Positions 3,335 to 46,432 are shown, counted from the stretch's first letter. The stretch is 64,000 bases of DNA from Candidatus Saccharibacteria bacterium CPR2 (GCA_021404905.1 QWHN01000001.1:2162-66161), one strand, 5' to 3'. Numbers and translations are program-made. The notes: a model not told the origin generated them from the sequence alone.

Positions 3335-3411
3335 TGGAGGGCCATGTGGGATTCGAACCCACGACACGCGGCTTAAGAGGCCGCTGCTCTAACCAACTGA
3401 GCTAATGGCCC
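3335..3411 (-). tRNA. tRNA-Lys (anticodon CTT), CCA encoded
   Basis: Reverse complement GGGCCATTAGCTCAGTTGGTTAGAGCAGCGGCCTCTTAAGCCGCGTGTCGTGGGTTCGAATCCCACATGGCCCTCCA. It has a 7-bp acceptor stem, anticodon loop CTCTTAA and T-loop TTCGAAT. Confidence 0.9.
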
Positions 3412-3951: not shown

Positions 3952-4164
3952 ATGGCACAAAAAGTAATTAAGATTGGTAGCTCTTTGGGCGTTACTATAC
4001 CCAAAAAGGAAGTCAGCGATCTTAATATTATAGCTGGCGATGAAGTGGAAGTAATAATTCGAAAAAAATTTAGCCGAGTTGCAAAACACGAAAAGCTACT
4101 TAAACAGCTGGAAGATTTTATGCACGTATACGATAAAGACTTAAAGAACTTGGCTAAAAGATAG
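3952..4164 (+). CDS. AbrB/MazE/SpoVT-type antitoxin (Phd-like partner of Doc)
   Basis: 70 aa with the swapped-hairpin motif IKIGSSLGVTIPKKEV. The stop overlaps the toxin GTG start (TAGTG). Confidence 0.8.
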   Translation: MAQKVIKIGSSLGVTIPKKEVSDLNIIAGDEVEVIIRKKFSRVAKHEKLLKQLEDFMHVYDKDLKNLAKR

Positions 4165-4547
4165 TGAAATATCTTGATGCAGAAGAAATTTTACTCATCC
4201 ATCATCAGCTAATTAAGCGCTTTGGTGGTTTACACGGCACGCGAAATTTAGAACAAATAAGATCTGTAGCTATAGCCCCAGCGCAACATGTTTTTGACAA
4301 TAAACAATATAAAAGTATTTTTGACAAAGCGTCGGTGTATGCTCGAAATATTATTCTAGATCACCCATTTTATGATGGGAATAAGCGAACCGGCATTACA
4401 ACCGCCATCATGTTTCTTATGAAAAATGACTACAAATTTAGCGCCCAACCCGGGGAAATTGAAGAATTCGCATTCAAAATTGCAGTCAACAAACTGGGTA
4501 TTAAAGAAATATCAACTTGGCTTGAGAAACACGTGTCCTCAGTTTAG
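4164..4547 (+). CDS. doc: Doc (death-on-curing) / Fic-family toxin
   Basis: Doc/Fic motif HPFYDGNKRTG. Size of 127 aa and position downstream of a small AbrB-type antitoxin fit the family. Confidence 0.9.
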   Translation: MKYLDAEEILLIHHQLIKRFGGLHGTRNLEQIRSVAIAPAQHVFDNKQYKSIFDKASVYARNIILDHPFYDGNKRTGITTAIMFLMKNDYKFSAQPGEIEEFAFKIAVNKLGIKEISTWLEKHVSSV

Positions 4548-4669: not shown

Positions 4670-6211
4670 TTATGGCGTGTTAGCTGTAGATTTCGAAAAT
4701 CGCTTCAAAAACCACAGCTTTATATCATTGCGCCATTCCCAAATTCCGTATCCAGTTGCCACTAATGCGGCGATTCCAACAATCCACCACGCGCTGTTGC
4801 TTCCGCTCGGAACTGACTCAACATCGTTTGTACTAGCGGCATTTGCGACATTGGCACCGGCAACTTTTCGACACCTGTTTGTTTCCGGATTGCGTTCCTG
4901 TCCCGCCGGGCATGATTTTTGAGACGAACTTGCAGAAGCTACCGATTTACATCTGTTTGTCTCGGGGTTTCTCTCCTGGCCAGGTTTACACGGCTTTAGA
5001 GAATCGTCACTTTCAGAAGATTTTTTGCGGCAACGATTTGTTTCCGGATTGCGTTCTTGGTCGGGTTTGCAGGGGGTTAATCCGTCCTCTTCAGTACTAG
5101 AGCTGCTGCTGACAGATTGGCAATAACCAGTTTCTTCATTTCTTACTTGATCGGGCGAAGAACAAGGCTTGGTAGTTTGAGCTATATTTGCACTAGCAGG
5201 CGTAGGAGAATAAGTTTTTTGCCAATCATTCCCACCAAACCACGCCCAGGACACATCATCTTCAAGATCGCCGGGATAAGTAACTTCGCTAAGTTCATCA
5301 TCCTGCGCGCTCAATAAATAAACTGTTCCTCCAGAGGAATTCGGTAAAACAATTCCGGTTTGGGCGTCTGAGAAAGCACTATAGCCACCAGGGTTTACGG
5401 TGATATCTCCAAAACGGTAAATGTTGGTTTTGCCGGAAAGTTGCAAGCCACAGCTCGTTAGACTTATGTAGTCGCCTGTTGGGTTGTGGAGTTCTATAAA
5501 CTCATTGCCTGTATCAGAGCCTGCTGAGTTGGGCAGAATTTCGGAAATAACAATGCCCTCGCATGAAAAGCTGTTTATATTGTCGTTGTTAACCTGCTCA
5601 GTTTCATTAGAACATTCAGCCAAACTTCCCGGATTAATTTCATCATAAAGTTTAAAATCCGAAGAATTATTGTTACTGTCTGTTATCACACCGTCCTGAG
5701 AACAACGCTGTAATGATTTTCCTCTTGCTAAAGGTTCTGCTGGACTTTCCTCTGGACTATTAGCATTACCCCACCCTACTAAATCAACCGTCACCCCATC
5801 ATCACAATTACTTTCCACTGGTTGAGTTAAACGAACATGGCCACCTGAATCAGCCAGCCCGCTCGTCAAAACGCCATCTGAATTTTCCAGATATCCGGAT
5901 GTCGAGACTACAAAAAATTCATCGGCTTTTATGGTACCGGATAGCTGCGATTTTACCGTCCAGTTCGTGCCGGTCGCGGATTTATAAGACAAACACCAGT
6001 TATTAAACTCGACGTCCTCGCCCGAATTATTATAAAGCTCTACGAATTCCTGGCCTGAACTTTCGACACTTCCAGATTGGACTTCGCTAATCAAGATTTC
6101 TGGAACAGCGTCTGCATTTTCTTTTTCAATAGTTTGAGCCGCTATGCTCGCTGGAAAAACAAAAGCCACCACCACGGAAATTATTACCGATCTAAGCAGG
6201 CTCAACCCCAT
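4670..6211 (-). CDS. Secreted, C-terminally membrane-anchored protein with two lamin-tail domains and four Cys-bounded loop repeats
   Basis: Signal peptide MGLSLLRSVIISVVVAFVFPASIAAQ. Two LTD signatures (ISEVQSG...EFVELYNNSG and ISEILPNSAGSDTGNEFIELHNPTG). Repeats of the form C-x3-(Q/D)Q-x-RN-x-ET-x2-C, e.g. CKPGQERNPETNRC. C-terminal TM WWIVGIAALVATGYGIW. Confidence 0.8.
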   Translation of the reverse strand: MGLSLLRSVIISVVVAFVFPASIAAQTIEKENADAVPEILISEVQSGSVESSGQEFVELYNNSGEDVEFNNWCLSYKSATGTNWTVKSQLSGTIKADEFFVVSTSGYLENSDGVLTSGLADSGGHVRLTQPVESNCDDGVTVDLVGWGNANSPEESPAEPLARGKSLQRCSQDGVITDSNNNSSDFKLYDEINPGSLAECSNETEQVNNDNINSFSCEGIVISEILPNSAGSDTGNEFIELHNPTGDYISLTSCGLQLSGKTNIYRFGDITVNPGGYSAFSDAQTGIVLPNSSGGTVYLLSAQDDELSEVTYPGDLEDDVSWAWFGGNDWQKTYSPTPASANIAQTTKPCSSPDQVRNEETGYCQSVSSSSSTEEDGLTPCKPDQERNPETNRCRKKSSESDDSLKPCKPGQERNPETNRCKSVASASSSQKSCPAGQERNPETNRCRKVAGANVANAASTNDVESVPSGSNSAWWIVGIAALVATGYGIWEWRNDIKLWFLKRFSKSTANTP

Positions 6212-6283
6212 ATTGATTTAAATACTAAGATTATTTTGACGATTGGTCAATATTATTTTATTTGGCTTATGCTTAGCTATAGA

Positions 6284-7738
6284 TTAATCTAAGACATTCT
6301 CTCTTTTAAAACCAAGTTTGGTCTTTTTCCATAAAAATACATTTAAACTCAAGATTACAACGCAGCTTAAAATTAGGTACGAAGCATTGAATTTTAATTC
6401 TCCCTCTGCCCAAGGCAAACCAGCTAGCCAATCGGCAACTCGAATCATATATGTTAGCAACGCGTTAGCTGGCCAGCCAGCAAAATGTGCTAGCGGCGGA
6501 AAGATAGCCGCCACAATTCCGCCAATGAAGGTTAAAAGCATAGCCAAGGGAACAAAGGGTTGAATCAAAATATTTGAAATTAACGCCAGTGGCGAGTACT
6601 CACCGAATGTAAACGCGATAATCGGTAAAGTTAAAATTTGGGCTGAAATTGTTCCGATAAGCAAATGCCTTAGGAAGCCCGGTTCTTTTTCACCCCAAAA
6701 ATAATTATGGATTAAAGGCGCTAGAATTATAACGCCTCCGAAGGCCGCGAATGACAGATACCAACCAACATCGCCCCACACATAAGCCGGACTTAATAAA
6801 ACCGTCATAGCAGCTACAAAAACAATTAACACAACAGGGTTAATTTTTCGGCCGTAATACCAGGCAAGTAAACTTAAAACTGTCATGATTGAAGCGCGAA
6901 TCATGGATGTTCCAAAACCGCTAATTGATAAAAACGCGCCAATAAAGAATAGACTGGCAATAAGCGCTAAATATTTTGACACTTTCGACAGTGGACGCTT
7001 AATGTAACTAACTATCAATGACAGATGATAACCACTAGCAACAACCAAATGAATAAGCCCCAGCATTTTCAGCTCGTTACTAAAATCTTCAGATAAAAGT
7101 TGCTGCTGACCAACCAGATAACTCAGGCCCAATCCTGCTTGCTCTTTGGGTATAATCATTAATACTTTTCGCGAGAACCAATCTCTGATTTCTCTGCCAA
7201 TGTCACCATGCTTTATGTTTTCAACTTTGAGTAACTTAGCTCTGGAAATTGTCGCTGGAAAATTACCGAAACCGTTCCGAATTTCGCCTTCAATTTGCAA
7301 ATTATCACCACGCTTTATCTGATCTCGGGTGGACAAACTAACCCAGACATTGCCGCTCATTGGCATGTTATTAATTTTAATTTTGCTTAGATTAACACCT
7401 GTGGTTCCATTATTTTTCTCAGTGACATCGCTTGCTACTCGCCCCGTAAGGATTACCGTTTGGCCATAATATTGCCCGTACTGAGAAAAGGCGATTTGCG
7501 CGTTCGCGCCCCGCCAAAGACCAAGTAATATTCCACAGATTAATGCGACAGTCAACATCCATTTGTAACGCCAGATGGCAACTAAAATAAATAAAATGGC
7601 GGCAAGCAACAACCAAGGCAATGCGGCGAAATAAGTGGTTTTTGGATTTAGCGCTAGTGCCGTGCCAGTCAAAACTCCAGCCGATGTAACTGAGATGAAA
7701 TAAACTATATGTAAGCGCTGCTTCATGCTACGCGCCAC
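6284..7738 (-). CDS. comEC: ComEC/Rec2 DNA internalisation channel (competence domain; no beta-lactamase domain)
   Basis: 484-aa polytopic membrane protein with an N-terminal OB-like region (VILTGRVASDV...GDNLQIEGEI). Competence-domain pattern LSYLVGQQ...GLIHLVVASGYHLSLI. Confidence 0.85.
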   Translation of the reverse strand: MARSMKQRLHIVYFISVTSAGVLTGTALALNPKTTYFAALPWLLLAAILFILVAIWRYKWMLTVALICGILLGLWRGANAQIAFSQYGQYYGQTVILTGRVASDVTEKNNGTTGVNLSKIKINNMPMSGNVWVSLSTRDQIKRGDNLQIEGEIRNGFGNFPATISRAKLLKVENIKHGDIGREIRDWFSRKVLMIIPKEQAGLGLSYLVGQQQLLSEDFSNELKMLGLIHLVVASGYHLSLIVSYIKRPLSKVSKYLALIASLFFIGAFLSISGFGTSMIRASIMTVLSLLAWYYGRKINPVVLIVFVAAMTVLLSPAYVWGDVGWYLSFAAFGGVIILAPLIHNYFWGEKEPGFLRHLLIGTISAQILTLPIIAFTFGEYSPLALISNILIQPFVPLAMLLTFIGGIVAAIFPPLAHFAGWPANALLTYMIRVADWLAGLPWAEGELKFNASYLILSCVVILSLNVFLWKKTKLGFKRENVLD

Positions 7739-8462
7739 TTTCTTGTTTAGGCAGCTCTTGGTTCGGACAAGAGTAAAGAACCCGCTTCATCGCGTTAAAC
7801 TCCGAGCGCGTTACCCAAAGATAATATTTAACTTTCACGGCGATCTGCCGAGCGACATAACGGCAACGGTAGCTTTCCTCTGGCAACCATTCGGACGCGT
7901 CCGCGTCGCTCTTGTCCATATTTGTCGGTCCGTCAACTGCAAGCAAATTTAGAGGATCGTTAGCTAAATCAAACCTTTCATCAGGACTTAGGGCCTGAGC
8001 GCCTTTTTGCCAAGCGTCAGATAGCGCGACCACGTGATCTATTTGAATGTCATCGCTCGTATCTTTTCCTCTTGTGAAGAAAATTGTTTTGTTGGTGTAT
8101 GGGTCTTTTTGTAAAGTTCCAGATAGAACTACGCATAGATCTTCACCTAAAACTTTATCGCTTAAGTCTCTTTGTAAAATCCTGTTTCTGGTGTCGCAGC
8201 CATCAACCATTGCCCAACCATCACTGAAATTTGATCTTTTATAACCTTCTCGGCTGCCTCTTTCTTTTATTTCCAACTTATTCAACGCGTTGAGCGCGAG
8301 ATTTTCCGGATTAATTTGCGCCGATTGATTTTGATCCAGAGATTGCGAGGAAGATTTTTGCGTTTGATACTGCGCGTAAAATGCAAAGCCGACAATTACA
8401 CAAAGGGTTAGTATGACAAGTATGAATCGGCGCCGACGATATGTAATTATCTGATTATTCAT
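7728..8462 (-). CDS. Membrane-anchored DUF1524/HNH-type extracellular nuclease
   Basis: N-terminal TM segment (FILVILTLCVIVGFAFYA). C-terminal motif IQIDHVVALSDAWQKGA...NLLAVDGPTNMDKSD typical of DUF1524 (GmrSD C-terminal His-Me finger). Overlaps comEC by 11 nt. Confidence 0.7.
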   Translation of the reverse strand: MNNQIITYRRRRFILVILTLCVIVGFAFYAQYQTQKSSSQSLDQNQSAQINPENLALNALNKLEIKERGSREGYKRSNFSDGWAMVDGCDTRNRILQRDLSDKVLGEDLCVVLSGTLQKDPYTNKTIFFTRGKDTSDDIQIDHVVALSDAWQKGAQALSPDERFDLANDPLNLLAVDGPTNMDKSDADASEWLPEESYRCRYVARQIAVKVKYYLWVTRSEFNAMKRVLYSCPNQELPKQESGA

Positions 8463-8581
8463 TTCGATTCTTTATAATGGAATTTAGCCCAATGTTACTA
8501 CATACATCCCTCAGGAATCACAAGCAGAATCCTGGGAAAATGTCATGTTATACTGGCTTGGCGAAGTTGCGTAGGGTAAAA

Positions 8582-9316
8582 ATGGGGGTATTGAGCATGT
8601 CAGAGTTATCGGCGAATGAACGCATTATTTTAGCAATTGACACTTCGGGCATAGAAGAGGCTGAAAGATTGATGAGTTTGGCCAAAGATATCGGATCAAA
8701 ATTTGTCAAATGTGGCCTCGAGCTCTCAAGTACTATTGGTTGGCAGGGTTGTTCTGAATTGGCAGCTGAGAAAAACTTAGAATGGGTTGCTGATGCAAAG
8801 TTGGATGATATCCCAAACACGGTAGCTAAAACGGTGAGAAATATTGGATCTCTCGACCATGCGCCATTTGGAATCACCATACACACAACGTCAGGCATAG
8901 AGGCAATGAGAGTTGCTCAGGAAGAAGCAGATTCTATCAAAATGCTTGGTGTTACCGTTTTGACGTCTATCACGGATGAAGAGGCGCGCAGGCTGTATCG
9001 AGTGCCGGTAAGACAAAAGGTGATAGAGCTGGCTTATGATGCTGTAGATGCTGGGATTAAAGGTATAGTTTCGTCCCCGCTTGAGGTGGGCTTGATCAAG
9101 AACAAACCAAAAACCTCAAACCTGTTTGCTATGATCCCTGGAACACGTTCGAGCAGTGCTGACGTTCAAGATCAGGCGCGGGTTGGTACGCCAAGCGCGG
9201 CAATTAGAGATGGTGCAGATCTTTTAGTGGTCGGGCGGCAAATTACGCAAGCAGAAAATCCCACTGAGGCTTTTGAGGAGCTAATAGAAGAAATTAAAAG
9301 CTCCATCCATGAATAA
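8582..9316 (+). CDS. pyrF: Orotidine 5'-phosphate decarboxylase
   Basis: IILAIDT...KCGLEL...DAKLDDIPNTV and C-terminal LVVGRQIT motifs. The start is moved to the internal ATG at 8582, which follows a TGTTATACT -10-like box and an AGGG; the track ORF begins at 8477. Confidence 0.85.
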   Translation: MGVLSMSELSANERIILAIDTSGIEEAERLMSLAKDIGSKFVKCGLELSSTIGWQGCSELAAEKNLEWVADAKLDDIPNTVAKTVRNIGSLDHAPFGITIHTTSGIEAMRVAQEEADSIKMLGVTVLTSITDEEARRLYRVPVRQKVIELAYDAVDAGIKGIVSSPLEVGLIKNKPKTSNLFAMIPGTRSSSADVQDQARVGTPSAAIRDGADLLVVGRQITQAENPTEAFEELIEEIKSSIHE

Positions 9317-9944
9317 TAGAGACGCAAATCATGAGAATTTAATTCGAGAAATGCTCGATAATGACATTGTTAAATTTGGCAATTTTACTTTAAAAAATGG
9401 TAGACAGTCCGTGGCTTACGTAAACTTGCGAGACATGATTTCTATCCCGAGTTTATTTAGGCAAGCAACTTCTGCCTATGCAGACACTTTGGGGAAATCT
9501 GGCTTAATGAATAAACCCGATGGATCGATGAGATTCCTTGCCGGTATCCCTGAAGCTGTTGTTTATTATGCAGGTGCTGTGGCTGAAAAAATTAATGCGC
9601 CCCTGCTGCAACGTAGAGTAAAAGCAAAGGAACACGGTCAACCAAGAGCCGTTGAGGGTCGTTTCAAAAGAGGCGATGAAGTAGTGCTCCTTGACGATGT
9701 AATAACAACTGCGAGCTCTAAATTGGAAGAAGTGTCTGCTCTTGGCGAATTTGGGCTTAGAGTAACGGGAGTTACCGTTTTAGTGGATCGCCAGCAAGGC
9801 GGCAGCAAAGAATTGAAAGCGCATGACCTGGATTTCGCGACAGTTTTAACTCTTGGAGAGATCGCAAGCTACGCGTATGAAAATAATTTGGCTAACATGA
9901 CTCAAACTTTGTACGATGATCTGCTCGGTGAACTTAATACTTAA
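9309..9944 (+). CDS. pyrE: Orotate phosphoribosyltransferase
   Basis: PRPP-binding loop VVLLDDVITTASS. Overlaps pyrF by 8 nt. Confidence 0.85.
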   Translation: MNNRDANHENLIREMLDNDIVKFGNFTLKNGRQSVAYVNLRDMISIPSLFRQATSAYADTLGKSGLMNKPDGSMRFLAGIPEAVVYYAGAVAEKINAPLLQRRVKAKEHGQPRAVEGRFKRGDEVVLLDDVITTASSKLEEVSALGEFGLRVTGVTVLVDRQQGGSKELKAHDLDFATVLTLGEIASYAYENNLANMTQTLYDDLLGELNT

Positions 9945-32623: not shown

Positions 32624-33205
32624 ATGCTTTTCTTGAGTAACAAATTTTTAAACGTAGCAGTTGTTAGCATAAATGCCGGTGCTAAAGTTGGCACTGTAAC
32701 TGAAATGATAATTAACCCCCACAAGCTGCGTGTTGATGCTTTTTATGTAATCTCAAGAGCCACAGGCAAATCGGTGTTGCACGTCGAAGATATACGCGGC
32801 TATGGGCCCCGAGGGTTACTTATAGATCACGAAGAGCAATTAATGGATCTTGCAGACTTAGTCAGGCTACAGGAAATCGCGAAAATACGTTATACGCCAA
32901 TTGATAAAAAAGTTGTTACAGAAGACAAACAAAAGCTTGGAAAAGTAACCGATTTTGTTATAGATTCTGAAACTTTTAAGATAATGAAAATTCATGTTAG
33001 ACAATCGGTTTTAAAAAATCTTCAAAGCTCAGCGCTTGTAATCGACAGAAGCCAGATAGTCGAGCTTACTAATGACAAAATAATCGTAAAAAGTACAGCC
33101 ATAAAAGAGCAGGAAGGAAGTGTTTTGAAAGCAAACATGCCACTTCCGTCAATCAAACCTCAGCTTAATCCTGATCCAGCGCCTTCAAAATTGTCTCGTA
33201 GTTAA
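32624..33205 (+). CDS. PRC-barrel domain protein (two repeats)
   Basis: Two similar ~80-aa segments (VVSINAGAKVGTVTEMIINPHKLRVDAFYV and VVTEDKQKLGKVTDFVIDSETFKIMKIHV), resembling YlmC/YmxH-type PRC barrels. Confidence 0.55.
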   Translation: MLFLSNKFLNVAVVSINAGAKVGTVTEMIINPHKLRVDAFYVISRATGKSVLHVEDIRGYGPRGLLIDHEEQLMDLADLVRLQEIAKIRYTPIDKKVVTEDKQKLGKVTDFVIDSETFKIMKIHVRQSVLKNLQSSALVIDRSQIVELTNDKIIVKSTAIKEQEGSVLKANMPLPSIKPQLNPDPAPSKLSRS

Positions 33206-33764
33206 AACCTTTTCTGGCAAGATATTGTTTTAGTTTTAATTCGTCTTGATAACGAGAGTTTTTTCTTTTTTTAATTATCAGTTCACGAATTGCACCCAAA
33301 TCAGACTGTAAGCAATTATTAATCGCTTCAATGATAATCTCATTTTCTATACTTTTGCGTTTTAGTTCGAATTCTATTTGCCTTTGGCTGGCATTTTTTA
33401 GTTCCCTGCGATTTTTGACCCACATTTTGGCAAACTCAAGATCGTTTAGATAATTTTGTTTGGTTAATTTTTTAATAATTTCTTCTGTTTGATCTTGATC
33501 CGCTCCAATTCGATCCAAATAATCTAAAATTTCTTTTTTTGAACGCAGGCGCAGTGATAAGTATTTCAAAACTCTATCGTAGTATTTGCCAATAGATGAT
33601 GCTTTTTTAAACCGCTCAAGTTCCGCGCCTGTAATATCCTGATTAATTTTGAGCTGCAAATCTATCACTTGAATTTGACTTAAAGAAAACTCGTATTTTT
33701 CATCAACAAAAATAGAGTAGCGGTCTTTCCGCTTTTGCTGTTTCTCAATAGCGGTAATTTTCAT
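33165..33764 (-). CDS. recX: RecA regulator RecX
   Basis: Three-repeat helical pattern. Located immediately downstream of recA. Confidence 0.8.
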   Translation of the reverse strand: MKITAIEKQQKRKDRYSIFVDEKYEFSLSQIQVIDLQLKINQDITGAELERFKKASSIGKYYDRVLKYLSLRLRSKKEILDYLDRIGADQDQTEEIIKKLTKQNYLNDLEFAKMWVKNRRELKNASQRQIEFELKRKSIENEIIIEAINNCLQSDLGAIRELIIKKRKNSRYQDELKLKQYLARKGFNYETILKALDQD

Positions 33765-33773
33765 GTAACCAAT

Positions 33774-34820
33774 TTAAACTTCTTTAGCAGCAGCTTCCCG
33801 GACTTTTTTATCTATTTCTTTAGTAACTTTAGCGTTTTCTGCCAAATATTTTTTGGCGGATTCACGACCCTGACCAATTTTTTGCCCATTATACTCAAAC
33901 CACGCGCCCGACTTGCCGACTATTTCGTATTTTACGCCGAGATCAAGTACATCGCCTTCATAGGAAATTCCTTGGTTGTACATAATGTCAAACTCCGCGT
34001 TTCTAAATGGCGGAGCGATTTTGTTTTTTACCACTTTTACTCGATGTCTACCCCCAATAATTTCTTCCCCGCTTTTGAGCTGACCGATTCGGCGAATGTC
34101 CATTCGAACCGAAGCGTAAAATTTCAAAGCATTTCCACCGGTGGTGGTTTCGGGATTCCCAAACATAACTCCGATTTTCATGCGAATTTGGTTAATAAAA
34201 ATAACCGTTGCTTTTGATTTATGGACTATTCCGGCAAGTTTACGTAACGCCTGGCTCATCAAACGAGCCTGAAGGCCAACGTGAGCATCACCCATATCAC
34301 CTTCGATCTCTGCTTGCGGCACCAAAGCCGCAACCGAGTCAACCACGACCAGATCAACTGCATTTGAGCGAACCAGAGTTTCAGTTATTTCAAGTGCTTG
34401 CTCTCCGTTATCCGGCTGAGAAATTAGCAATTCCTCAATGTTAACTCCGAGCCTTTTAGCATATTGAGGATCAAGCGCATGTTCGGCATCCACAAACGCC
34501 GCGGTACCGCCATTTTTTTGAATCGAAGCGATAGCGTGCAATGTAAGCGTAGTTTTTCCGCTCGACTCCGGCCCATAGATTTCAATGATTCTGCCCTTTG
34601 GCAAACCTCCACCAAGTGCAATATCAAGCGACAAACTGCCGATTGAAAAGGTTTCGACATCTATTTTATGAGCGTCTCCCAAGCGCATAATTGACCCGCT
34701 GCCAAACTGTTTTTCAATTTGCTCAACCGCCAAGCCCAATGCCCTTGATTTGCCATTATCTGGTTTTTCTTTTAGTTCAGTTTTTTTTACTGACACAACT
34801 CCTCCTTTACTCCAACCCAT
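33774..34820 (-). CDS. recA: Recombinase RecA
   Basis: [10 protein letters not shown] Walker A, and the [14 protein letters not shown] signature. Confidence 0.97.
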
Positions 34821-34894: not shown

Positions 34895-36643
34895 ATGATG
34901 ATTCCCGATTCCATGGTCCAGCAAATGTTGCTGGAGGCTGGCAAAATCAAAGAAGATCAAGCTAAAGAACTGCTGGAACAGGTCAAACAAGCAAAAAGGC
35001 CGCTCCAGGAAGTTGTAGTTAAGAATAACATTATTTCCGAAAAGGAACTTACTCAACTTTACTCTAAAGAAATTGAAGTTCCCTTTATAGAAATCGACAC
35101 AAAGGAAATTGATAAAGAGACTTTAAAGCTCGTTCCCGAAAGAGTTGCCAGAAAATATAACGTCGCCCTCATAGGTGTCAAGAAAGACGGATCCAATATG
35201 CTTGCCATGGAGGATCCTGACGATGTTCAGGCGCTCGATTTCTTAAAGAAATTGCTCGGCAAAAAGCTGGAAGTCTACATCGCGCCAAAGCAGGATATTT
35301 TGGCTGCTTTAGACCAATACCGAGGCAACATCAGCAGCGAGATAACCAAAGTCATTACAGAAGACGATGAAGAAGTTGATGAAGAAGTTGATGAATCGGA
35401 TTTGGCTGAGGACTCCCCTATTGCTCAAACAGTGAATTTGCTAATTGAGTATGCTGTTAAATCTGAAGCTTCCGACATACACATAGAGCCAAGAGATAAA
35501 TTCGTACAAGTACGTTATAGGATTGATGGAGTTCTAAAAGAAGCCAATAAACTTCCAAAGAAAATACTTGCCTCACTAGTTTCGCGCATCAAAATTTTGT
35601 CAAATTTAAAAATCGATGAACGCCGTGTACCCCAAGATGGTAGATTTAAAATTAACTTAAATGGCAGAATTTTTGCTTTCCGTGTTTCAACTTTACCGGT
35701 TGTCGATGGCGAAAAAGTAGTGATGAGAGTGCTTGATGAATCAAGCGATGCCCTGTCTCTAGAAAAACTGGGTTTTTGGGGCAAGTCTCTAGATGTTATC
35801 AATAACGCCATAGTTCAGCCTCATGGCATGATCTTAGTCACCGGACCAACCGGTTCGGGCAAGTCTACTACTCTACATAGCGTTCTAAACATACTTAATA
35901 AGCCTAATATTAATATTTCAACTATAGAAGATCCCGTTGAATATAAATTAGAGGGAACCAATCAAACCCAAGTAAACCCAAAAGCCGGAATGACCTTCGC
36001 CAACGGACTTAGAGCACTCCTGAGACAAGACCCGAATGTAATAATGGTCGGAGAAATTCGAGACAAAGAAACCGCTGGACTGGCAGTTCAGGCAGCTTTA
36101 ACCGGCCACTTGGTGTTTTCAACTCTGCATACAAACAATGCCGCTACTTGCCTGCCGCGTTTACTGGACATGGGCATCGAGCCTTTTCTGATTGCTTCTA
36201 CCGTCCGTGCGGTAGTTGGCCAGAGATTGGTGCGTAAGATCAATCAAGAAGGTTGCGAACAATACCAGCTAACAGAAAATGAAAAAAATCAAATAGAAAA
36301 TATATTTAACATTAAAACCAAACAGGACTGGGATAGAGTATATACCTTGGCGAACCAATACCGCGAGGCTATGGGAGAGAAAAAAAGCGATACCTTTACA
36401 CTTTGGCGCCCTAAGCAGGGTGATAGCTCAAAAGCTCCCGGATATAAAGGGCGGATGGGGATTTATGAAGTATTGGGCATCTCACCTGCAATTCAACAGC
36501 TAATTGTCAGCAATGCCACAAGCAGCCAAATTCAAGATCAGGCTGTTAAAGAAGGTATGAACGTTATGCAGCTAGACGGCCTGATAAAAGCTATGGTTGG
36601 GCTAACTTCTATAGAAGAGATTCTAAGAGTCACGAGAGAATAA
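34895..36643 (+). CDS. pilB: Type IV pilus assembly ATPase PilB (GspE family)
   Basis: Walker [10 protein letters not shown], Asp box, Walker [10 protein letters not shown] and His box [12 protein letters not shown]. Confidence 0.93.
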
Positions 36644-36645
36644 TC

Positions 36646-37875
36646 ATGCCCAAATTTACTTATAATGCTGTTAATAAAAAAGGTGAAAACGTAAACGGTA
36701 CTATTGAGGCATCAACAAAAGAAGCCGTGGCGGATACTTTGACGAAGCAGGGATTAAAACCATTACTTATAAAATTACAGAAAACCGGATTTGATCCGAA
36801 TAATATAAACATTAATCTCAGCTTTTTGGACCGCGTTAGGACCAAAGATCTAGTAATTTTTACGCGACAACTGTCGACTATGGTCAACGCTGGCGTCCCA
36901 TTGGTGAGGTCTTTGGCTACCCTTCAAAATCAAACGCAGAGTAAAAAATTGAAGACTGTTTTAGCAGCTGTTACTAAAGACGTTGAAGCGGGCATTCAAC
37001 TGGCAGATGCTCTCGAAAAACACCCTTCAGTATTTTCAGAGGTTTACGTAAATATGGTTAGAGCTGGTGAGGCCGGGGGAATACTTGACGATATCCTTAA
37101 AAAGCTGGCTTTCCAACAGGAAAAAGACGCAAGTATTAAGAAAAAACTGAAGGGAGCGATGACTTACCCTGCGGTACTAATGTTTATTACTATAATCGCG
37201 TTTTTTGCCTTAACGATATTTGTGGTGCCAAAAATTGGCGCCATGGTGAAATCGTTAGCCGGCGAAGACGCCACGTTACCTATTCAAACCACAATCATGC
37301 TCGGAATCAGTGACTTCTTAAGAGGCTATTGGTTCATATGGATACCCGCTATAGTGGGAACGATTATCGCCCTTAGAGCCTATATAAAAACTAAGAGCGG
37401 TAAGCGTAATTTTCATTTGTTTTTACTTAAGGCACCGATAGTTAAAACTATTGTTACTAAAGTAGCTGTAGCACGATTTTCACGCACATTTGCTTCATTA
37501 ATGTCCGCGGGCGTGACAGTTCTTGAAGCAATTCATACTACCAGTGGAGCAATAGGAAATATAATTATCGCAGAAGAACTTAACAAAGCGGCGGAGGCTG
37601 TAAAAAACGGCAAGCAGCTTTCCGAGCCACTATCAGAGAGTAAGATTTTTCCTGCCATAGTCAGCCAGATGCTGGCAGTAGGCGAAGAAACTGGCCAGAC
37701 TGATACCATTCTTATTAAAGTAGCTGATTTTTACGAAGAGGAAGTTGATACATTAGTTGATAGTATGAGCTCCATCATAGAACCGATCATGATAGTTATT
37801 ATGGGAGCTATGGTCGGGTTGATTGCGGCCAGTGTCATAGGGCCAATTAGTAGCCTCACTAAACAGATTAAATAA
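36646..37875 (+). CDS. pilC: Type IV pilus platform protein PilC (GspF family)
   Basis: Two T2SSF repeats (FTRQLSTMVNAGVPL and FSRTFASLMSAGVTVLEA) and 3 TM segments. Confidence 0.93.
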   Translation: MPKFTYNAVNKKGENVNGTIEASTKEAVADTLTKQGLKPLLIKLQKTGFDPNNININLSFLDRVRTKDLVIFTRQLSTMVNAGVPLVRSLATLQNQTQSKKLKTVLAAVTKDVEAGIQLADALEKHPSVFSEVYVNMVRAGEAGGILDDILKKLAFQQEKDASIKKKLKGAMTYPAVLMFITIIAFFALTIFVVPKIGAMVKSLAGEDATLPIQTTIMLGISDFLRGYWFIWIPAIVGTIIALRAYIKTKSGKRNFHLFLLKAPIVKTIVTKVAVARFSRTFASLMSAGVTVLEAIHTTSGAIGNIIIAEELNKAAEAVKNGKQLSEPLSESKIFPAIVSQMLAVGEETGQTDTILIKVADFYEEEVDTLVDSMSSIIEPIMIVIMGAMVGLIAASVIGPISSLTKQIK

Positions 37876-37898
37876 TTTATATCGCTACTTATTAAGTG

Positions 37899-37926
37899 TT
37901 GACACAGATATGCTAATGCTTATAAT
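37899..37926 (+). promoter_or_regulatory. Sigma-70-type promoter upstream of the major pilin
   Basis: TTGACA (37899-37904), a 16-nt spacer, then TATAAT (37921-37926). A strong AGGAGG Shine-Dalgarno lies 8-9 nt before the pilA ATG. Confidence 0.45.
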
Positions 37927-38005
37927 AGTTCTCAGATGCTTGACTCTGCATTAGATGCAGGGTAAGTAGAATAAAAAGAACATAATTAAAGGAGGGTGGG
38001 CTAAA

Positions 38006-38422
38006 ATGTTCACGAAACTAAAAAAATCTCAAGAGGGTTTCACAATTGTTGAACTCTTAATCGTAATTGTCGTTATAGGTATCTTGGCGGCACTAGTATT
38101 AACAACATTCCAGGGAGTTCAGGCACGGGCTAGAGACACTGAACGCAAAACTGACGTAAACGCTTTGCACACGCATTTGGAAGTTTACTACAACGATAAT
38201 GGAAGGTATCCTACATTAGCTCAGGTTACCACAGCAAACCTTCCAGGTCTTGATCCTGAAGCATTGAATGATCCAAATGGGAACGCGCTAAGCGCAAACG
38301 CTCCTTTCGCATATGTACCTGCGCCAACAAACTGTGACAACACCAACAACGACTGTACCAGCTATACTCTTACAGCTACCATGGAAGAGGAAGCAAACTA
38401 TGTCAAGGGCAGCTTGAATTAA
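38006..38422 (+). CDS. pilA: Major type IV pilin (PilA-like)
   Basis: Prepilin leader MFTKLKKSQEG/FTIVELLIVIVVIGILAAL. 138 aa with a C-terminal Cys pair. Has its own promoter, SD and terminator. Confidence 0.85.
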   Translation: MFTKLKKSQEGFTIVELLIVIVVIGILAALVLTTFQGVQARARDTERKTDVNALHTHLEVYYNDNGRYPTLAQVTTANLPGLDPEALNDPNGNALSANAPFAYVPAPTNCDNTNNDCTSYTLTATMEEEANYVKGSLN

Positions 38423-38444
38423 AACAGCAAGTTGAATTTAGAAC

Positions 38445-38476
38445 AAGGCGCTTTTCATGTGAGCGCCTTTTTCTTT
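38445..38476 (+). terminator. Rho-independent terminator after pilA
   Basis: AAGGCGCT-tttcatgtg-AGCGCCTT followed by TTTTCTTT. Confidence 0.6.
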
Positions 38477-38545
38477 GCCTATTTTTATCATAAGCATTTA
38501 CGCCGCCTTAATTATTAAGTAGGATATAAGATAGATGAGTATGCC

Positions 38546-38968
38546 ATGAGGTATAAAGAGTTTGGATTTACCATACCCGAGTTATTAGTGACATTATTTG
38601 TTCTGGTCACTGCTTTTATTAGTTTTACTACGTTATTCGTAGCCATTGATAGTGTTAGTACCAAAAATAAATTACTGCTTGACGCGAACGGGGCGGCTTA
38701 TGCCAAAATTCAGGAATACGAGAATATGGAATTTACAAATATTCCCACTGGCAGTACATGTGATGACGGTTCAAAAACAAACGAAGTCGAAGATTTTTCC
38801 GGTAGCCTTCCTTCCTCTTTATTCGCGCCTAAAACAGGAAAGGTATATGTAGTATCTGTAACTCAAAGCCTGAAATTAATTTGCGTAGAAGTGTCCTATA
38901 GAGATAACAATGGCAATAAACTCATAGAATATGCCGACTTTATTCATGAAAGCGGGTACGGTAGATGA
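38546..38968 (+). CDS. Minor (pseudo)pilin
   Basis: Leader MRYKEFG/FTIPELLVTLFVLV with Glu5. Confidence 0.7.
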   Translation: MRYKEFGFTIPELLVTLFVLVTAFISFTTLFVAIDSVSTKNKLLLDANGAAYAKIQEYENMEFTNIPTGSTCDDGSKTNEVEDFSGSLPSSLFAPKTGKVYVVSVTQSLKLICVEVSYRDNNGNKLIEYADFIHESGYGR

Positions 38969-39699
38969 AAATATTCAACCAAAAAGGCTTTACACTCGTA
39001 GAAATACTGGTTGTCGCGCCGATTTTCATATTAGTAGCAATGGGTATGCTTGGATATTTAATAGAAAGATATGGTCAAACTCTTATTAAGTCAGCCGAGG
39101 TTAATTTAATGGTTGACGCGCAAACAATTACTTTAAATCTAGAAGACGAACTTGCGTTCGCCACAAACTTTGGCGATACGCTTGGGGCAAATTTAAGCGA
39201 TCCAAACGAACCAAATGGAGGCTGGACCTTCAACACAACTCCAAATACGTTAATAATCTACGAACAGTCAAGAACGGGAGACATACGCGACCCTAATAGC
39301 GATGTAATTTTTGCTCAGCCATGCGATGGAACGTCTATAGCACTAAATAATCTTATCTATTTTTCTGAAGATAACAATAATAACGATTATAAAAGCCTTT
39401 ATAAAAGAACTGTCGTGCCAGATAGCGCGGATATCTGTGCCACAAATTTCCGGCAATTAACTTGCCCAAGCGAAACCGTGGGTACAAATGGTTGCAATCA
39501 AGCAGACGCGTTGGTAACAGATAAATTAATTGACTTTCAGGTTACTTATTATGACGAAGATAATGCCGTAATCGACATGGGCAACGGAGGGAACCCGCTT
39601 GACGCGGAAAAAGTAGCAATAGCAATTACTTTGGGAGATATTGCCTATGGAGAAGAAGTCCAGGCGTCGTCATCATTAACAGTAAAGAAGTTTAATTAA
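38965..39699 (+). CDS. Minor (pseudo)pilin, PilW-like
   Basis: Leader MKIFNQKG/FTLVEILVVAPIFIL. Start overlaps the upstream stop (ATGA). Confidence 0.7.
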   Translation: MKIFNQKGFTLVEILVVAPIFILVAMGMLGYLIERYGQTLIKSAEVNLMVDAQTITLNLEDELAFATNFGDTLGANLSDPNEPNGGWTFNTTPNTLIIYEQSRTGDIRDPNSDVIFAQPCDGTSIALNNLIYFSEDNNNNDYKSLYKRTVVPDSADICATNFRQLTCPSETVGTNGCNQADALVTDKLIDFQVTYYDEDNAVIDMGNGGNPLDAEKVAIAITLGDIAYGEEVQASSSLTVKKFN

Positions 39700-39700
39700 T

Positions 39701-41584
39701 ATGAAATTGATTAGTCGACACAGCAATAAAGGATTCCTGATACCGTCAATCATGATAATTATTGCTCTTATTGGCATTGTGGCAATCTCTACTCTTAGTA
39801 TGGTCAACACAAGCCAATATGCCGCTTCAAAACAAAGTTACCAGCAAATGGCTCATATAGCCTCAAAGGCGGCGCTTGATTTCGCAAAAGAACAGTTTGA
39901 AGATAATCAAAATTTCGGGGGCATTAACGCAGCTAATCCCTATATAGATCCTGATGACGGTCAAAGTTATACAGAAATTGAGATTATTAAAAATGATAAA
40001 TATCGCGTAACTTTTCAAATTGATGTGCTCTCCACTGCTATATGCACAAGCCAGGGCCAAAATTACCTTTGCAAGGAAATGCGAGGCACCGGATATGTAT
40101 ACTTGCCTGAAACTTCAGTAACAGCCCATTATGTGCGCGATATCAAAAATACTATCATTCGAGAATCAGTTGAGCTGGGAAATCCAGCAGATTATGGCCC
40201 AATTTTGTGGCTTGATGCAAGCGTAGCTGGCTCCATGATAACAGGATCACTAGCTGGCAACGAGCAATACATTACCGCCCAATACGGTTCTTCAAATGGC
40301 AGTATTGTTGAGGAAAGAGGCTCTGATGCAGGAAGTAACCCGGGAAGACTCATTTGGACTAATGACGATTTGGAAATGTCGTGGGACGGAGTCACAAACG
40401 GCCATCAGATTACAGGACTAAGGTTCACGGGCCTTAACATCCCACAAGGCAAGACAATCGAACAAGCCTATATACAATTTCAAACTGATGAAACAAAAGC
40501 CGCTGGTAATGTAAGCTTGCGTGTAAAGGGAATTTTAAGTCCAAACGCACCGGCATGGAATGGTAATGGCGCTGTTTCTAGTGCTGTAAAGACTGCAGCA
40601 AATGTAAATTGGAACCCGGTGGATTGGAATGTAGTAGGTGCTAATGGCCAAAACGAACGAACTGCTGATTTGGCACCAATTGTGCAAGAAATTATCAACC
40701 AAGGATCCTGGAACAGTGGCAATGCGATCGCGTTTTCAGTAGAATACGTTTCTGGCTCCGGAATCAGAACCGCAGAAAAAGGAATGGATGATATTGGTAA
40801 CCCGATACTTTATATCAAATGGCAGGATGCGGGTATTAGTGTTGCGGGGAACAACGACCCCATAAGCCAATGGCAGGATATATCAGGCAACGGTAATCAT
40901 GCCAATCTAGCATACGGGGCTGCGCCTGTAAAACAAGACGGTTTATTTAACAATGGCTCGATGCCATCCGTTGTATTTAGTGGAAATGGCGTACTTGGAT
41001 CTAATCTGACTTCTACTTTTATAAATCAGGAATCCACAGCATTTATTGTTATGAGAGCTAGAAGCAGTAGCAGTAGTGAGGCACGATATGTAACCATGAT
41101 GAGAAGTAATTTTGCATCCGACGACCCCGTTGGTTGGAGCGGAAGCCCGTCGCTGCAGCATTTTAGAAGACAAGGGTCAACATCCACAATAAAAAATAAA
41201 GCCTTTTTACTTGGCTTCCTGGAAGTAAGTTCCAGCTTTACCCCGGCCATAGATAACCAGCAACGAGTATACTCAAGTCGAATGGGATCGGGATTATGCA
41301 TCTTTGGTTGGTGTTGGGGTAATAAAGTTTACATGCGCGGGAATGGAGCGATGGGAACAGAAAATTCCTGGAATCTTGCGACTCACATGGCTGATCAAAT
41401 CTATGTTGGCGGCAGAAGAAACGGCACGGGTGGCTCAGCACAAGGAGCAGATTATGCTGATGCGGACATTGCAGAAGTGCTGGTCTATGCTGGCGCCTTA
41501 AATTGCTCTCAGGTTCAGGAAGTTGAAACATATCTGTCAGCTAAATGGGGAATTTCATTCACTCCAAGTTCCTGCCCCAATTAA
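39701..41584 (+). CDS. Large pilin-like protein with C-terminal LamG/concanavalin-A-like lectin domain (candidate pilus tip adhesin)
   Basis: N-terminus SNKG/FLIPSIMIIIALIGIVAIS is pilin-like but lacks Glu5, as in PilX/GspK-type pilins. The C-terminal ~230 aa resemble LamG_3 (WQDISGNGNHA...FIVMRARSS...IYVGGRRNG...IAEVLVYAGALN...ETYLSAKWGI). Confidence 0.7.
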   Translation: MKLISRHSNKGFLIPSIMIIIALIGIVAISTLSMVNTSQYAASKQSYQQMAHIASKAALDFAKEQFEDNQNFGGINAANPYIDPDDGQSYTEIEIIKNDKYRVTFQIDVLSTAICTSQGQNYLCKEMRGTGYVYLPETSVTAHYVRDIKNTIIRESVELGNPADYGPILWLDASVAGSMITGSLAGNEQYITAQYGSSNGSIVEERGSDAGSNPGRLIWTNDDLEMSWDGVTNGHQITGLRFTGLNIPQGKTIEQAYIQFQTDETKAAGNVSLRVKGILSPNAPAWNGNGAVSSAVKTAANVNWNPVDWNVVGANGQNERTADLAPIVQEIINQGSWNSGNAIAFSVEYVSGSGIRTAEKGMDDIGNPILYIKWQDAGISVAGNNDPISQWQDISGNGNHANLAYGAAPVKQDGLFNNGSMPSVVFSGNGVLGSNLTSTFINQESTAFIVMRARSSSSSEARYVTMMRSNFASDDPVGWSGSPSLQHFRRQGSTSTIKNKAFLLGFLEVSSSFTPAIDNQQRVYSSRMGSGLCIFGWCWGNKVYMRGNGAMGTENSWNLATHMADQIYVGGRRNGTGGSAQGADYADADIAEVLVYAGALNCSQVQEVETYLSAKWGISFTPSSCPN

Positions 41585-41653
41585 ATTAAGCTATATGTCA
41601 AAATGTTAAACTGTTATACTTATGAATAGCGCTAATGTTTTAAAAATAAATTT

Positions 41654-42718
41654 ATGAATAACACTCCGCTATTTTTTGTTGATAAGCCGGTTTTTGGAAT
41701 CGACATATCCCAGACATCCGTAAAAGTAATGCAAATAGATACTGCGTCAAAAATGCATACCGTAAGAGGATACGGCCATATAAATTTTGACGATAGAGCT
41801 ATTAAACAAGGTGTTGTGGTTGACCCTGAAACAATTGCTAAAGCAGTATACACGTTATTTTCCAAGCATTTAGTAGGAGCAATTGACACAAAAAGAGTTA
41901 TTAGTTCAGTTCCATCAGCCAGCACGTTTAATCGCATTCTCTCCCTGCCGCATATGGAAAAGAAAGATCTTGATGAGGCAGTTAGGTTGGAAGCTGAGCA
42001 ATATATACCTGTTCCCTTGGAAGATTTATATCTAGATTACGAAATTGTAAAAAAAGATGACAATAACATCAGTGTTTTAATGGTAGGGGCTCCAAAAAAA
42101 GTTATAGATTCTTTTATGGTGCTCTTGGACTTGCTTGGGCTGGAGGTCGTTGGATTACAACCAAGTATAGATGCTGTGACAAAAATCATCATGCATGCTG
42201 AAGGGACATCAGTTCCCACGCTCATTATTGATTTTGGTTCATATAATTCAAACATGGCAATATATGACAGTACGGTTAGTGTTGCGGGAAGTATATCAAG
42301 CGGCGGCGAGAATATTTCAGAACTAATCTCAAAATCTCTTAATGTAACATCCCGCCAAGCATATACCATCAAAACAAGATATGGTTTAGATCCAAGTAAA
42401 CGCCAAAAAGAAATTATTGGGGCCTTAAGCCCATACTTGAAAAAACTAATATCCGAGATTAAAAAAATAATTAGATTTTACGAAGAAAGATCCGTTAAGG
42501 GAGAAAAGGTTGGCCAGGTTATAACCGTAGGCGGAGGAGCAAATCTTCCTGGTTTAAGCACATATTTAACGGACCAGCTTAGGCTTCCGGCGCGCCGATG
42601 CGATCCTTGGCAAAATTTAAATTTTGGCACTATTCAACCTCCCCACCCGCTTGAGACCACACTTTATACGACAGCAGCGGGTTTAAGTTTGGCGGGTCCG
42701 CGAGGAATATTATCATGA
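41654..42718 (+). CDS. pilM: Type IV pilus assembly protein PilM (actin-like ATPase fold)
   Basis: FGIDISQTSVKVMQID...QYIPVPLEDLYLDYEI...GGGANLPGLSTYL. Confidence 0.9.
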   Translation: MNNTPLFFVDKPVFGIDISQTSVKVMQIDTASKMHTVRGYGHINFDDRAIKQGVVVDPETIAKAVYTLFSKHLVGAIDTKRVISSVPSASTFNRILSLPHMEKKDLDEAVRLEAEQYIPVPLEDLYLDYEIVKKDDNNISVLMVGAPKKVIDSFMVLLDLLGLEVVGLQPSIDAVTKIIMHAEGTSVPTLIIDFGSYNSNMAIYDSTVSVAGSISSGGENISELISKSLNVTSRQAYTIKTRYGLDPSKRQKEIIGALSPYLKKLISEIKKIIRFYEERSVKGEKVGQVITVGGGANLPGLSTYLTDQLRLPARRCDPWQNLNFGTIQPPHPLETTLYTTAAGLSLAGPRGILS

Positions 42719-43290
42719 TAAATCTAATGCCCCCAAATCTTAAAAAAGATATTCTTTACGCCAGAAGGAATGTCACGCTCGCGCAGTATTGTGTTTTAGT
42801 TGCCATTACGGCGGTTGCACTGACAGGTGTAATGGTCTACGGAATAATGTTAATTAATTCAGATCAAAATGCGCTTGAAGAATCAATATCATCAAAAAAA
42901 TCAACTCTCGAGCTGTTGAAAAAAGATGAAACGGAGGCAAATAATTTGTCTAAAACCATAGACACCATCAACGCTTTGCTTAACAGAGAAGTATCATTTT
43001 CTAAGCTTCTGCAAGATATTGGTGCCCTCATGCCAGAGGGCACGAAACTCACAGGGCTTTCACTCGCATCATCTAAAGACCAGCCTCTCACGATTACAGC
43101 AGCCCTAAACGAACAGAAAAAGGCCGCTATTTTACAACAGAATTTATTAAAATCCGGACTTTTCTCAGCTGTTGATATCCAGGCGGTTAATACCTCCGCA
43201 ACAGCTGAGGATGGCACTCCGACCGAATTCAGCGCTCAGCTTTCGGCCAAATTTGCAGACGAATCTAGCAAGACGGAGAAAAAACAATGA
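42715..43290 (+). CDS. pilN: PilN-like fimbrial assembly protein
   Basis: INLMPPN start, single TM, coiled coil. ATGA overlap with pilM. Confidence 0.75.
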   Translation: MINLMPPNLKKDILYARRNVTLAQYCVLVAITAVALTGVMVYGIMLINSDQNALEESISSKKSTLELLKKDETEANNLSKTIDTINALLNREVSFSKLLQDIGALMPEGTKLTGLSLASSKDQPLTITAALNEQKKAAILQQNLLKSGLFSAVDIQAVNTSATAEDGTPTEFSAQLSAKFADESSKTEKKQ

Positions 43291-43865
43291 CCCCGAAAAA
43301 AGCATATATTCTCATGCTAATTGTTTTGCTGGCAACAATAGCTGGCAGCTTTGGGGTTCTTTATATATCAGATAAGCTGCTAGCAGGCAGAGCCAGTGAC
43401 ATATCGCGGCTCAAAGCTGAAGATCAAGCATTGGATACAAACATCTTAACGGCTAACAAAAATCAACAGACTTTGCAGGAGCTCGCTTATGTCAACGAAC
43501 TGGCAAAAGAGGTATTGCCGCCCGAAAAAATACAATCAAACTTACTTGGAGAAGTCCTTGCCAACGCGGAAGATGCCGGAATATTTTTAAGCAGTATTGC
43601 TTTTTCTGGAAGCATCGATGAAAAAAATCCGCAGTTATCCCAAACTGTCGAGCTTAAAGACGTGCCAGGCGTAAGAGCATTGCAATTTACGGTTGATATG
43701 AGTTCAATTTCATACTCCCAGCTCTTGGATTTTTTGGAAAACCTAGAAAAAAACCGCAGGAAAATGCAAGTTGAAAGCCTAACGATTACGCCAGAATTAG
43801 AGGACGATCAACAATCAGATAAAGTAAGTGCTAATATAACTGTAAACGTTTACATAAAACCATGA
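43287..43865 (+). CDS. pilO: PilO-like pilus assembly protein
   Basis: N-terminal TM plus coiled coil. Position after pilN, with an ATGA overlap. Confidence 0.65.
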   Translation: MTPKKAYILMLIVLLATIAGSFGVLYISDKLLAGRASDISRLKAEDQALDTNILTANKNQQTLQELAYVNELAKEVLPPEKIQSNLLGEVLANAEDAGIFLSSIAFSGSIDEKNPQLSQTVELKDVPGVRALQFTVDMSSISYSQLLDFLENLEKNRRKMQVESLTITPELEDDQQSDKVSANITVNVYIKP

Positions 43866-46383: not shown

Positions 46384-46432
46384 ACCAAGAAGTATATCGT
46401 ATAGAGTATGGAGTATGAAGCGCACCCCTGGC

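Follow-up and report, generated by a model that had tools for sequence, protein, structure and literature searches.

The pneumococcal nuclease EndA degrades the non-transported strand of incoming DNA, letting ComEC import single-stranded DNA, and in Bacillus subtilis the metallo-beta-lactamase domain of ComEC (and NucA) provides outer-face nuclease activity for efficient transformation. Roughly half of ComEC proteins lack this beta-lactamase-type domain; Silale et al. call the removal of the non-transforming strand in such organisms an open question, with EndA the sole nuclease identified for it. Here we describe a three-gene block of Candidatus Saccharibacteria bacterium CPR2, an ultra-small Saccharibacteria genome, in which a nuclease-less comEC lies between the gene for a predicted surface nuclease and the gene for a protein with two lamin-tail domains (LTDs). 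The block is part of a window of 64,000 nucleotides (GCA_021404905.1, QWHN01000001.1:2162-66161), and an earlier note on this DNA had read it as a candidate for a complete route that degrades and imports DNA. Our analysis favors a narrower reading, to which we assign a probability of roughly 0.45: the nuclease and ComEC would form an EndA-like pair for natural transformation, and the LTD protein would be a linked envelope protein with a role independent of ComEC.

Like EndA, which works at the DNA-uptake site, the CPR2 nuclease is (by prediction) a membrane-anchored, outward-facing His-Me-finger nuclease with a beta-beta-alpha-metal core. The two differ in family, EndA being an Endonuclease_NS protein with a DRGH motif and the CPR2 protein belonging to PF07510 (DUF1524). 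Moreover, pneumococcal ComEC keeps a beta-lactamase-type domain, of which CPR2 ComEC has none, and the CPR2 nuclease is operon-coupled to comEC, whereas pneumococcal endA is not known to be encoded with comEC. The B. subtilis arrangement differs in another way: there the nuclease is ComEC's own C-terminal domain, while in CPR2 it is a separate protein of unrelated fold, encoded directly upstream. The closest solved folds are those of endonuclease I enzymes (Vibrio cholerae Dns and Vvn; PDB 2vnd, 2g7e, 1oup), which are likewise exported, cysteine-rich His-Me-finger DNases; these are soluble PF04231 proteins, however, whereas the CPR2 nuclease is anchored and of PF07510, and the match is weak. 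V. cholerae Dns has been cited for a part in processing extracellular DNA during natural transformation. GmrSD, BrxU and SspE have the PF07510 nuclease domain in common with the CPR2 protein, and SspE is among its weak fold matches, but they are cytoplasmic and carry N-terminal DUF262/ParB-like domains in place of a transmembrane anchor joined to a nuclease domain with four invariant cysteines. For the LTD protein, the nearest described counterpart is Shewanella ExeM, with its Vibrio and Aeromonas relatives, in which an LTD also occurs on an envelope-associated protein in an extracellular-DNA context; a signal peptide and a hydrophobic C-terminal region are shared as well. The LTD of ExeM is joined to OB-fold and EEP nuclease domains, whereas the CPR2 protein combines two LTDs with Cys-loop repeats and lacks a catalytic domain. 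The CPR2 block may represent a competence channel served by a separate accessory nuclease in the membrane, a known sort of arrangement built with a different nuclease family.

The block lies on the minus strand and its first transcribed gene encodes the predicted membrane-anchored, extracytoplasmic His-Me-finger nuclease of the DUF1524/GmrSD_C family (positions 8462 to 7728; 244 aa). This is followed by a ComEC/Rec2 DNA channel of the DUF4131 plus Competence type, with no metallo-beta-lactamase domain (7738 to 6284; 484 aa), and by a 513-aa surface protein comprising a signal peptide, two LTDs, Cys-loop repeats and a C-terminal transmembrane anchor (6211 to 4670). All three of the co-oriented open reading frames described in the earlier note were recovered, and every domain call is backed by Pfam; its choice of genes was right, although it had numbered them against the direction of transcription, in which the nuclease comes first and the LTD gene last. 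The 11-nt overlap it gave between nuclease and comEC is true for the first in-frame GTG (7738), but public gene calls use an ATG at 7726, the probable start, which yields a 480-aa ComEC beginning 1 nt past the nuclease stop. Whichever start is used, the coupling of the genes is tight. Searching for an exact copy of the 484-aa ComEC returned no match because the public calls begin at 7726; the nuclease is 100% identical to the NCBI entry 'HNH endonuclease [Candidatus Saccharibacteria bacterium CPR2]'. Between comEC and the LTD gene is an AT-rich spacer of 72 nt (6212 to 6283, minus strand), in which a promoter and terminator scan found no terminator-like site. A promoter-like TTGACC-17-TAGTAT at 6250 to 6222 (minus strand) ends 10 nt ahead of the LTD ATG; it is a consensus match only and is cited for its position, promoter-like matches in the block region being no more numerous, and the scan as a whole no better, than in shuffled sequence.

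The nuclease assignment rests on a match to PF07510 (GmrSD_C/DUF1524) with an E-value of 3.2e-19 and a score of 69.6 bits (cut-off 23), which spans positions 2-137 of the 138 in the profile. In an alignment of 30 homologues, 51-70% identical to the CPR2 protein, H143, N168, N181 and K184 are invariant, as is the D142-H143 pair, and N172 is conserved in at least 90%; these residues fall within QIDHVVALSDAW...NDPLNLLAVDGPTNMDKSD. Also kept throughout this family are the four cysteines and an N-terminal RRRR/Arg cluster followed by one hydrophobic segment, which in the CPR2 protein is the single transmembrane segment indicated by hydropathy (residues 13-31). We read the topology of this protein and of the LTD protein by inspection and simple hydropathy, and on that basis the nuclease is predicted to be membrane-anchored and to face outward, as EndA does. 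The N-terminally anchored DUF1524/His-Me-finger nuclease of the earlier note is thus borne out by the Pfam match, the His-Me residues and the arginine cluster with its transmembrane segment, and neither a loss of the four catalytic residues nor a cytoplasmic placement was found.

A confident AlphaFold2 model of the nuclease (predicted local distance difference test score, pLDDT, 89.6) begins with a long N-terminal helix; H143 closes strand 139-143, and N181 lies on helix 178-183, which comes after a second strand (173-177); as modeled, this is a beta-beta-alpha-metal core. The best folds in the PDB are the V. cholerae extracellular endonuclease I and Vibrio vulnificus Vvn (Foldseek probability 0.96-1.0). 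Neither PDB sequence searches with the nuclease nor NCBIfam gave a match. We considered a GmrSD-type defense enzyme and dropped it, as there is no DUF262 domain and no PADLOC match, the N-terminus is a transmembrane anchor, and PF07510 is the only domain found. The Pfam search of the nuclease likewise detected neither PF01223 nor PF13930 (Endonuclease_NS, with the DRGH motif), and the protein belongs to a different His-Me group.

ComEC itself is of an ordinary kind. It matches PF03772 (Competence; E 1.8e-42, 146 bits against a cut-off of 23) and PF13567 (DUF4131, the N-terminal OB-fold; E 2.2e-11, 44.2 bits against 31.6), has approximately 11 hydrophobic segments by hydropathy, and shows no Pfam match to Lactamase_B, in agreement with the earlier note's description of a channel lacking the beta-lactamase nuclease domain. 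It passes the TIGR00360 ComEC_N-term model (73.2 against a cut-off of 36.5) and fails the full-length TIGR00361 ComEC_Rec2 equivalog (37.8 against 190). This failure is expected because the beta-lactamase-type domain is absent: the C-terminal metallo-beta-lactamase domain is needed for the equivalog, not for membership of the ComEC family. The domain is likewise missing from all of its 120 best homologues, which measure 420-508 aa. Its absence, on which the earlier note's proposal leaned, is not special, as the same DUF4131 plus Competence profile occurs in 14 of 51 known competent strains.

The LTD protein matches PF00932 in two stretches (E 2.3e-24, 86.3 bits against a cut-off of 34.3), corresponding to LTD1 at approximately residues 36-190 and LTD2 at approximately 217-345. 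By inspection and hydropathy its N-terminal hydrophobic segment ends in PASIAA-Q, and its C-terminus consists of an uncharged stretch followed by basic residues, so that the secreted, C-terminally anchored protein with two LTDs proposed earlier is what we also predict. The AlphaFold2 model (pLDDT 81.5) contains two beta-sandwiches and helices at 3-18 and 473-511, and the LTD models match the Ig folds of lamins A/C, B1 and B2 (TMt 0.57-0.72). The family alignment gives a common layout of signal peptide, LTD1, a very conserved LTD2, cysteine repeats and C-terminal anchor. The repeats are three to six tandem Cys-bounded loops of 14-15 residues (C-x2-4-GQERNP-x-TNRC) that form a stalk beside the membrane anchor; the CPR2 protein has four, of the form C-x3-4-[DG]Q-x-R-[ND]-x-ET-[GN]-[YR]-C, at residues 350-447 (window 4870-5164). 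Weak matches to Pfam TNFR_nem reflect these loops only, and we rejected that identity; the loop looks like an undescribed repeat. With approximately 900 representative clusters at E<=1e-30, the family is large.

Several properties of this protein speak against the DNA-binding tether suggested in the earlier note. Both LTDs are strongly acidic family-wide (median isoelectric point, pI, 4.1-4.2; net charge -11 to -16). The membrane-proximal repeat stalk is basic for most family members (median +7.5, pI 9.2); that of CPR2 is only weakly basic, near-neutral (+2, pI 8.1). Pfam and NCBIfam detect no catalytic or nucleic-acid-binding domain; no helix-hairpin-helix domain was matched, unlike in a ComEA-type receptor. 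PDB sequence searches and NCBIfam gave no match for this protein. A fusion of LTD and nuclease of the ExeM/Xds type was also excluded, Pfam and NCBIfam finding no OB-fold, EEP or beta-lactamase-type domain. At its C-terminus the CPR2 protein carries GYG-I-WEWR, an instance of a family transmembrane/juxtamembrane motif, G-Y-[AG]-x-[YW]-E-W-R (window 4670-4800), found by strict pattern in 33 of 67 hits. The motif is present on no other open reading frame in the 80 loci described below, which suggests a specific membrane partner and not a general sorting signal. As judged from these features, and from a mutant phenotype unlike that of ComEC (see below), the LTD protein is probably not a DNA tether; it is most likely an envelope or host-interface protein on a disulfide-stapled stalk.

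We compared gene order around ComEC in one genome per GTDB species, giving 80 Saccharibacteria loci with ComEC proteins 39-47% identical, and counted as informative those with enough sequence on the relevant side (75 downstream, for the LTD gene; 74 upstream, for the nuclease). A full-length, same-strand LTD orthologue lies downstream of ComEC in 67 of the 75, always co-oriented: adjacent in 23, beyond one gene of approximately 250 aa in 33, and further off in 11. That intervening gene, which we considered as an alternative nuclease, is YebC, and the small conserved genes upstream of ComEC in relatives of the YebC type encode DUF192 and a membrane protein, neither of them a nuclease or ComEA-like. 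The nuclease is immediately upstream of ComEC in 28 of 74, the median gap between the two being approximately 10 nt (stop to start). Conservation of the gene order, left by the earlier note as a check, therefore splits: the ComEC-LTD part holds across the class, and the nuclease part holds in one clade. Among all neighbors of ComEC in the 80 loci, LTD ranks highest (67), followed by YebC (56), a small membrane protein (32), RimK (31), the nuclease (28) and RuvA (28). The RimK-type ligase genes recur upstream of ComEC. By comparison, genes flanking the block in the window (pyrF, pyrE, NUDIX, Phd/Doc and others) occur near ComEC in only 0-4 of 80 loci, so the block is much better conserved than its local background.

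Within the clade that has the nuclease beside ComEC, 16 loci extend 6 kb or more in both directions. Of these, 16 of 16 contain the nuclease and ComEC and 14 of 16 contain LTD, while no flanking gene family exceeds 5 of 16. The block is thus a real gene cluster, kept as a unit in one Saccharibacteria clade, and its retention there amid scrambled flanks carries weight. Anchoring instead on the nuclease in metagenome contigs (72 informative loci, 6-kb reach), we found ComEC directly downstream in 18. Where the nuclease gene is away from ComEC, a divergent gene for an M1 aminopeptidase is its usual neighbor (36 of 62 loci), with NusA (32) and RNase HII (28) also nearby.

The association of ComEC with LTD is real and class-wide, and it outlasts rearrangement. 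Forms that keep both genes include ComEC-YebC-LTD, Nuc-ComEC-LTD, Nuc-ComEC-LTD-YebC and YebC(-)|Nuc-ComEC-LTD. In many genomes the LTD gene lies within a neighborhood of type IV pilus (T4P) genes, RecA, RuvABC and ComEC. CPR2 retains most of this neighborhood elsewhere in the window: RecX-RecA at 33165-34820 (minus strand), a T4P operon at 34895-43865 (plus strand; PilB, PilC, three pilin-like genes, a 627-aa protein of unknown function, PilM, PilN and a PilO-like gene), and RuvB-RuvA-RuvC-YebC at 44765-47700 (minus strand). The earlier note had put the pilus operon 27 kb away; it is present, and from the block to the PilB start at 34895 we measure 26.4 kb. The order T4P-RecX-RecA-RuvB-RuvA-RuvC-YebC (33-47.7 kb) is the same as in Southlakia epibionticum, where it continues RuvC-LTD-YebC-ComEC. 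In CPR2, ComEC and LTD have left the Ruv neighborhood together and are now 39 kb away with the nuclease. This joint relocation, with the survival of the linkage through the variant orders, is the best argument that the two genes are tied by more than chance.

S. epibionticum is the sole source of experimental data for these families (PMC10633639). Saccharibacteria are naturally competent, and deletion of comEC in this organism abolishes transformation (Wang et al. 2023, PMC10633639). Insertions in ComEC, ComF and DprA carry no fitness cost, and the authors conclude that the com system is unneeded for nucleotide acquisition (PMC10633639). In the transposon-sequencing data (Table S1), ComEC (SEML1_0777) is called non-essential at each of the three time points and YebC is also non-essential, whereas the LTD orthologue (SEML1_0775), a core, Patescibacteria-enriched protein, goes from non-essential at T0 to essential at T1 and T2 and is required for epibiotic growth on the host (PMC10633639). 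The DUF1524 nuclease (SEML1_0519) is non-essential and falls outside the core families, and published structure-based annotation assigns it to the 1oup His-Me domain (PMC10633639). These three proteins match those of the CPR2 block in family and architecture. Their arrangement differs: ComEC and LTD are linked with YebC between them, and the LTD gene lies inside a yebC-ruvC-ruvA cluster; the nuclease gene, adjoining comEC in CPR2, is approximately 245 kb from it in S. epibionticum, beside NUDIX and M1 peptidase genes. In the stretch SEML1_0519-0521 the nuclease has M1 peptidase and RNase HII neighbors, as in the nuclease loci unlinked to ComEC. No ComEA is annotated in S. epibionticum, and no ComEA helix-hairpin-helix was found in the window or the 80 loci, a weak negative, as the queries were approximate.

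Taken together, these comparisons lead us to favor an EndA-like pairing of nuclease and ComEC. Under this mechanism, type IV pili would deliver double-stranded DNA at the cell surface, where the anchored nuclease would create ends and/or degrade the non-transported strand, ComEC would thread the remaining single strand inward, and ComFC, DprA and RecA would take over inside the cell. The purpose would be natural transformation, not nucleotide feeding. The nuclease is a reasonable and testable candidate because a surface His-Me nuclease here precedes the type of ComEC that supports transformation in this lineage. From the earlier proposal of a complete degrade-and-import route, the nuclease-ComEC pairing thus survives as plausible, while the LTD tether and the supply of nucleotides do not find support; the dispensability of ComEC, ComF and DprA contradicts the latter.

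A number of observations weigh against this reading. The fold matches of the nuclease are weak (template-modeling score 0.31-0.39, E approximately 5e-3, 14-17% identity), and the closest solved folds, those of endonuclease I/Dns and Vvn, belong to bulk DNases of the extracellular space or the periplasm. The V. cholerae enzyme Dns lowers transformation. On a neighbor-joining tree of ComEC, adjacency of the nuclease falls in what is essentially a single clade (2 Fitch changes among 29 linked and 45 unlinked tips), and on the nuclease tree linked and unlinked genes separate with approximately 5 changes; the nuclease thus came to lie beside ComEC on one or a few occasions, and the adjacency represents about one evolutionary event, neither repeated convergence nor a general rule. 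Among the 72 nuclease-anchored loci, 54 have no ComEC within 6 kb. As for the independent role of the LTD protein, the essentiality of its orthologue could be a polar effect, since SEML1_0775 is followed within 5 nt by ruvC and then by a PBP transglycosylase gene and ruvA, all needed for fitness (PMC10633639). Insertions in the genes upstream of LTD (yebC, comEC) are tolerated in S. epibionticum, which counts against polarity.

The nuclease might instead be a general surface DNase or RNase that scavenges phosphate or nucleosides, clears extracellular DNA, or limits transformation as Dns does, its position beside comEC being an uncoupled rearrangement that was simply retained. The many orthologues away from ComEC, the single origin of the adjacency, the bulk secreted or periplasmic nature of the best structural matches, and the non-essential, non-core status of the nuclease in S. 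epibionticum would all fit such an enzyme. We nonetheless consider it rather unlikely, as a median coupling of approximately 10 nt has been kept over approximately 45-70% protein identity while the flanks were scrambled, which argues for selection on co-expression with ComEC. The same retention of the block while all other neighbors turn over, along with the joint move of ComEC and LTD, makes it highly improbable that the three genes merely share an inherited order and no function, even though the nuclease joined ComEC about once and most genomes have a housekeeping gene, yebC, separating ComEC from LTD.

Other alternatives concern the LTD protein. It could be a structural partner of the uptake machine, for instance holding ComEC or the pilus across the wall by means of its conserved transmembrane/juxtamembrane motif, with a second, essential envelope role; its passage with ComEC through several rearrangements, including the joint move in CPR2, its frequent place in the pilus and recombination neighborhood, and a C-terminal motif specific to its family are consistent with this. 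The linkage is lost in 8 of the 75 informative loci, however, and Saccharibacteria genomes are generally syntenic, which inflates linkage signals, so we judge this quite improbable. We regard the full model of the earlier note as very unlikely. In it, all three proteins form one capture, degradation and import route for nucleotide scavenging, with the LTD protein as the tether. The order kept within the clade and the class-wide ComEC-LTD linkage would suit it; so would the occurrence of LTDs in extracellular nucleases such as ExeM, where LTD removal lowers in vitro activity, and the want of a DNA receptor, no ComEA being in evidence. Yet the acidity of both LTDs, the lack of any detected nuclease or known nucleic-acid-binding domain in the protein, and the dispensability of the S. 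epibionticum com genes oppose it, and because the LTD orthologue is required there and ComEC is not, the two do not have a single shared function. The role of the LTD protein therefore appears independent of ComEC. We are similarly doubtful, if a little less so, of a version in which the DUF1524 nuclease is the missing degrader of the non-transforming strand for nuclease-less ComEC and the LTD protein a surface receptor or scaffold replacing ComEA; if true, this would be a previously unrecognized outer DNA-uptake module in Saccharibacteria, which are transformable with a nuclease-less ComEC and no annotated ComEA.

The immediate surroundings of the block contain further features. Convergent with the LTD gene is a toxin-antitoxin pair, a Phd/MazE-like antitoxin (3952-4164) and a Fic/Doc toxin (4164-4547), and just past it is tRNA-Lys(CTT) at 3335-3411; in S. 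epibionticum a tRNA-Lys gene adjoins comEC directly. On the other side, divergent from the nuclease, pyrF (orotidine monophosphate decarboxylase) and a pyrE-like phosphoribosyltransferase gene overlap by 8 nt (8477-9944). They encode the last two steps of uridine monophosphate synthesis, in a lineage said to be without de novo nucleotide synthesis, and their pairing with the block is not kept in relatives (0-4 of 80 loci). The segment 33165-47700 as a whole forms a DNA-uptake and recombination neighborhood and also contains a bPH protein. In its pilus operon, the 627-aa open reading frame (39701-41584) has no Pfam match at E<=0.1 and a 140-aa frame (38546-38968) shows only a faint N-methylation motif; both may be lineage-specific pilus components. 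In 22 of 80 loci, type IV pilin-like frames with N-termini of the GFTIVELLIVIVIIGILAA type occur no more than 8 kb from ComEC.

In the literature we found no prior treatment of LTD proteins in bacteria of the candidate phyla radiation or of this gene cluster, no account of DUF1524 as a secreted nuclease or a competence factor, and none of the Saccharibacteria LTD family. The block gives a concrete candidate for strand degradation from a nuclease family other than that of EndA. S. epibionticum is tractable and has both a non-essential nuclease orthologue and an established transformation assay, so the idea is testable. The LTD proteins form a large, Patescibacteria-enriched and unstudied family that is apparently essential and is linked to ComEC across the class.

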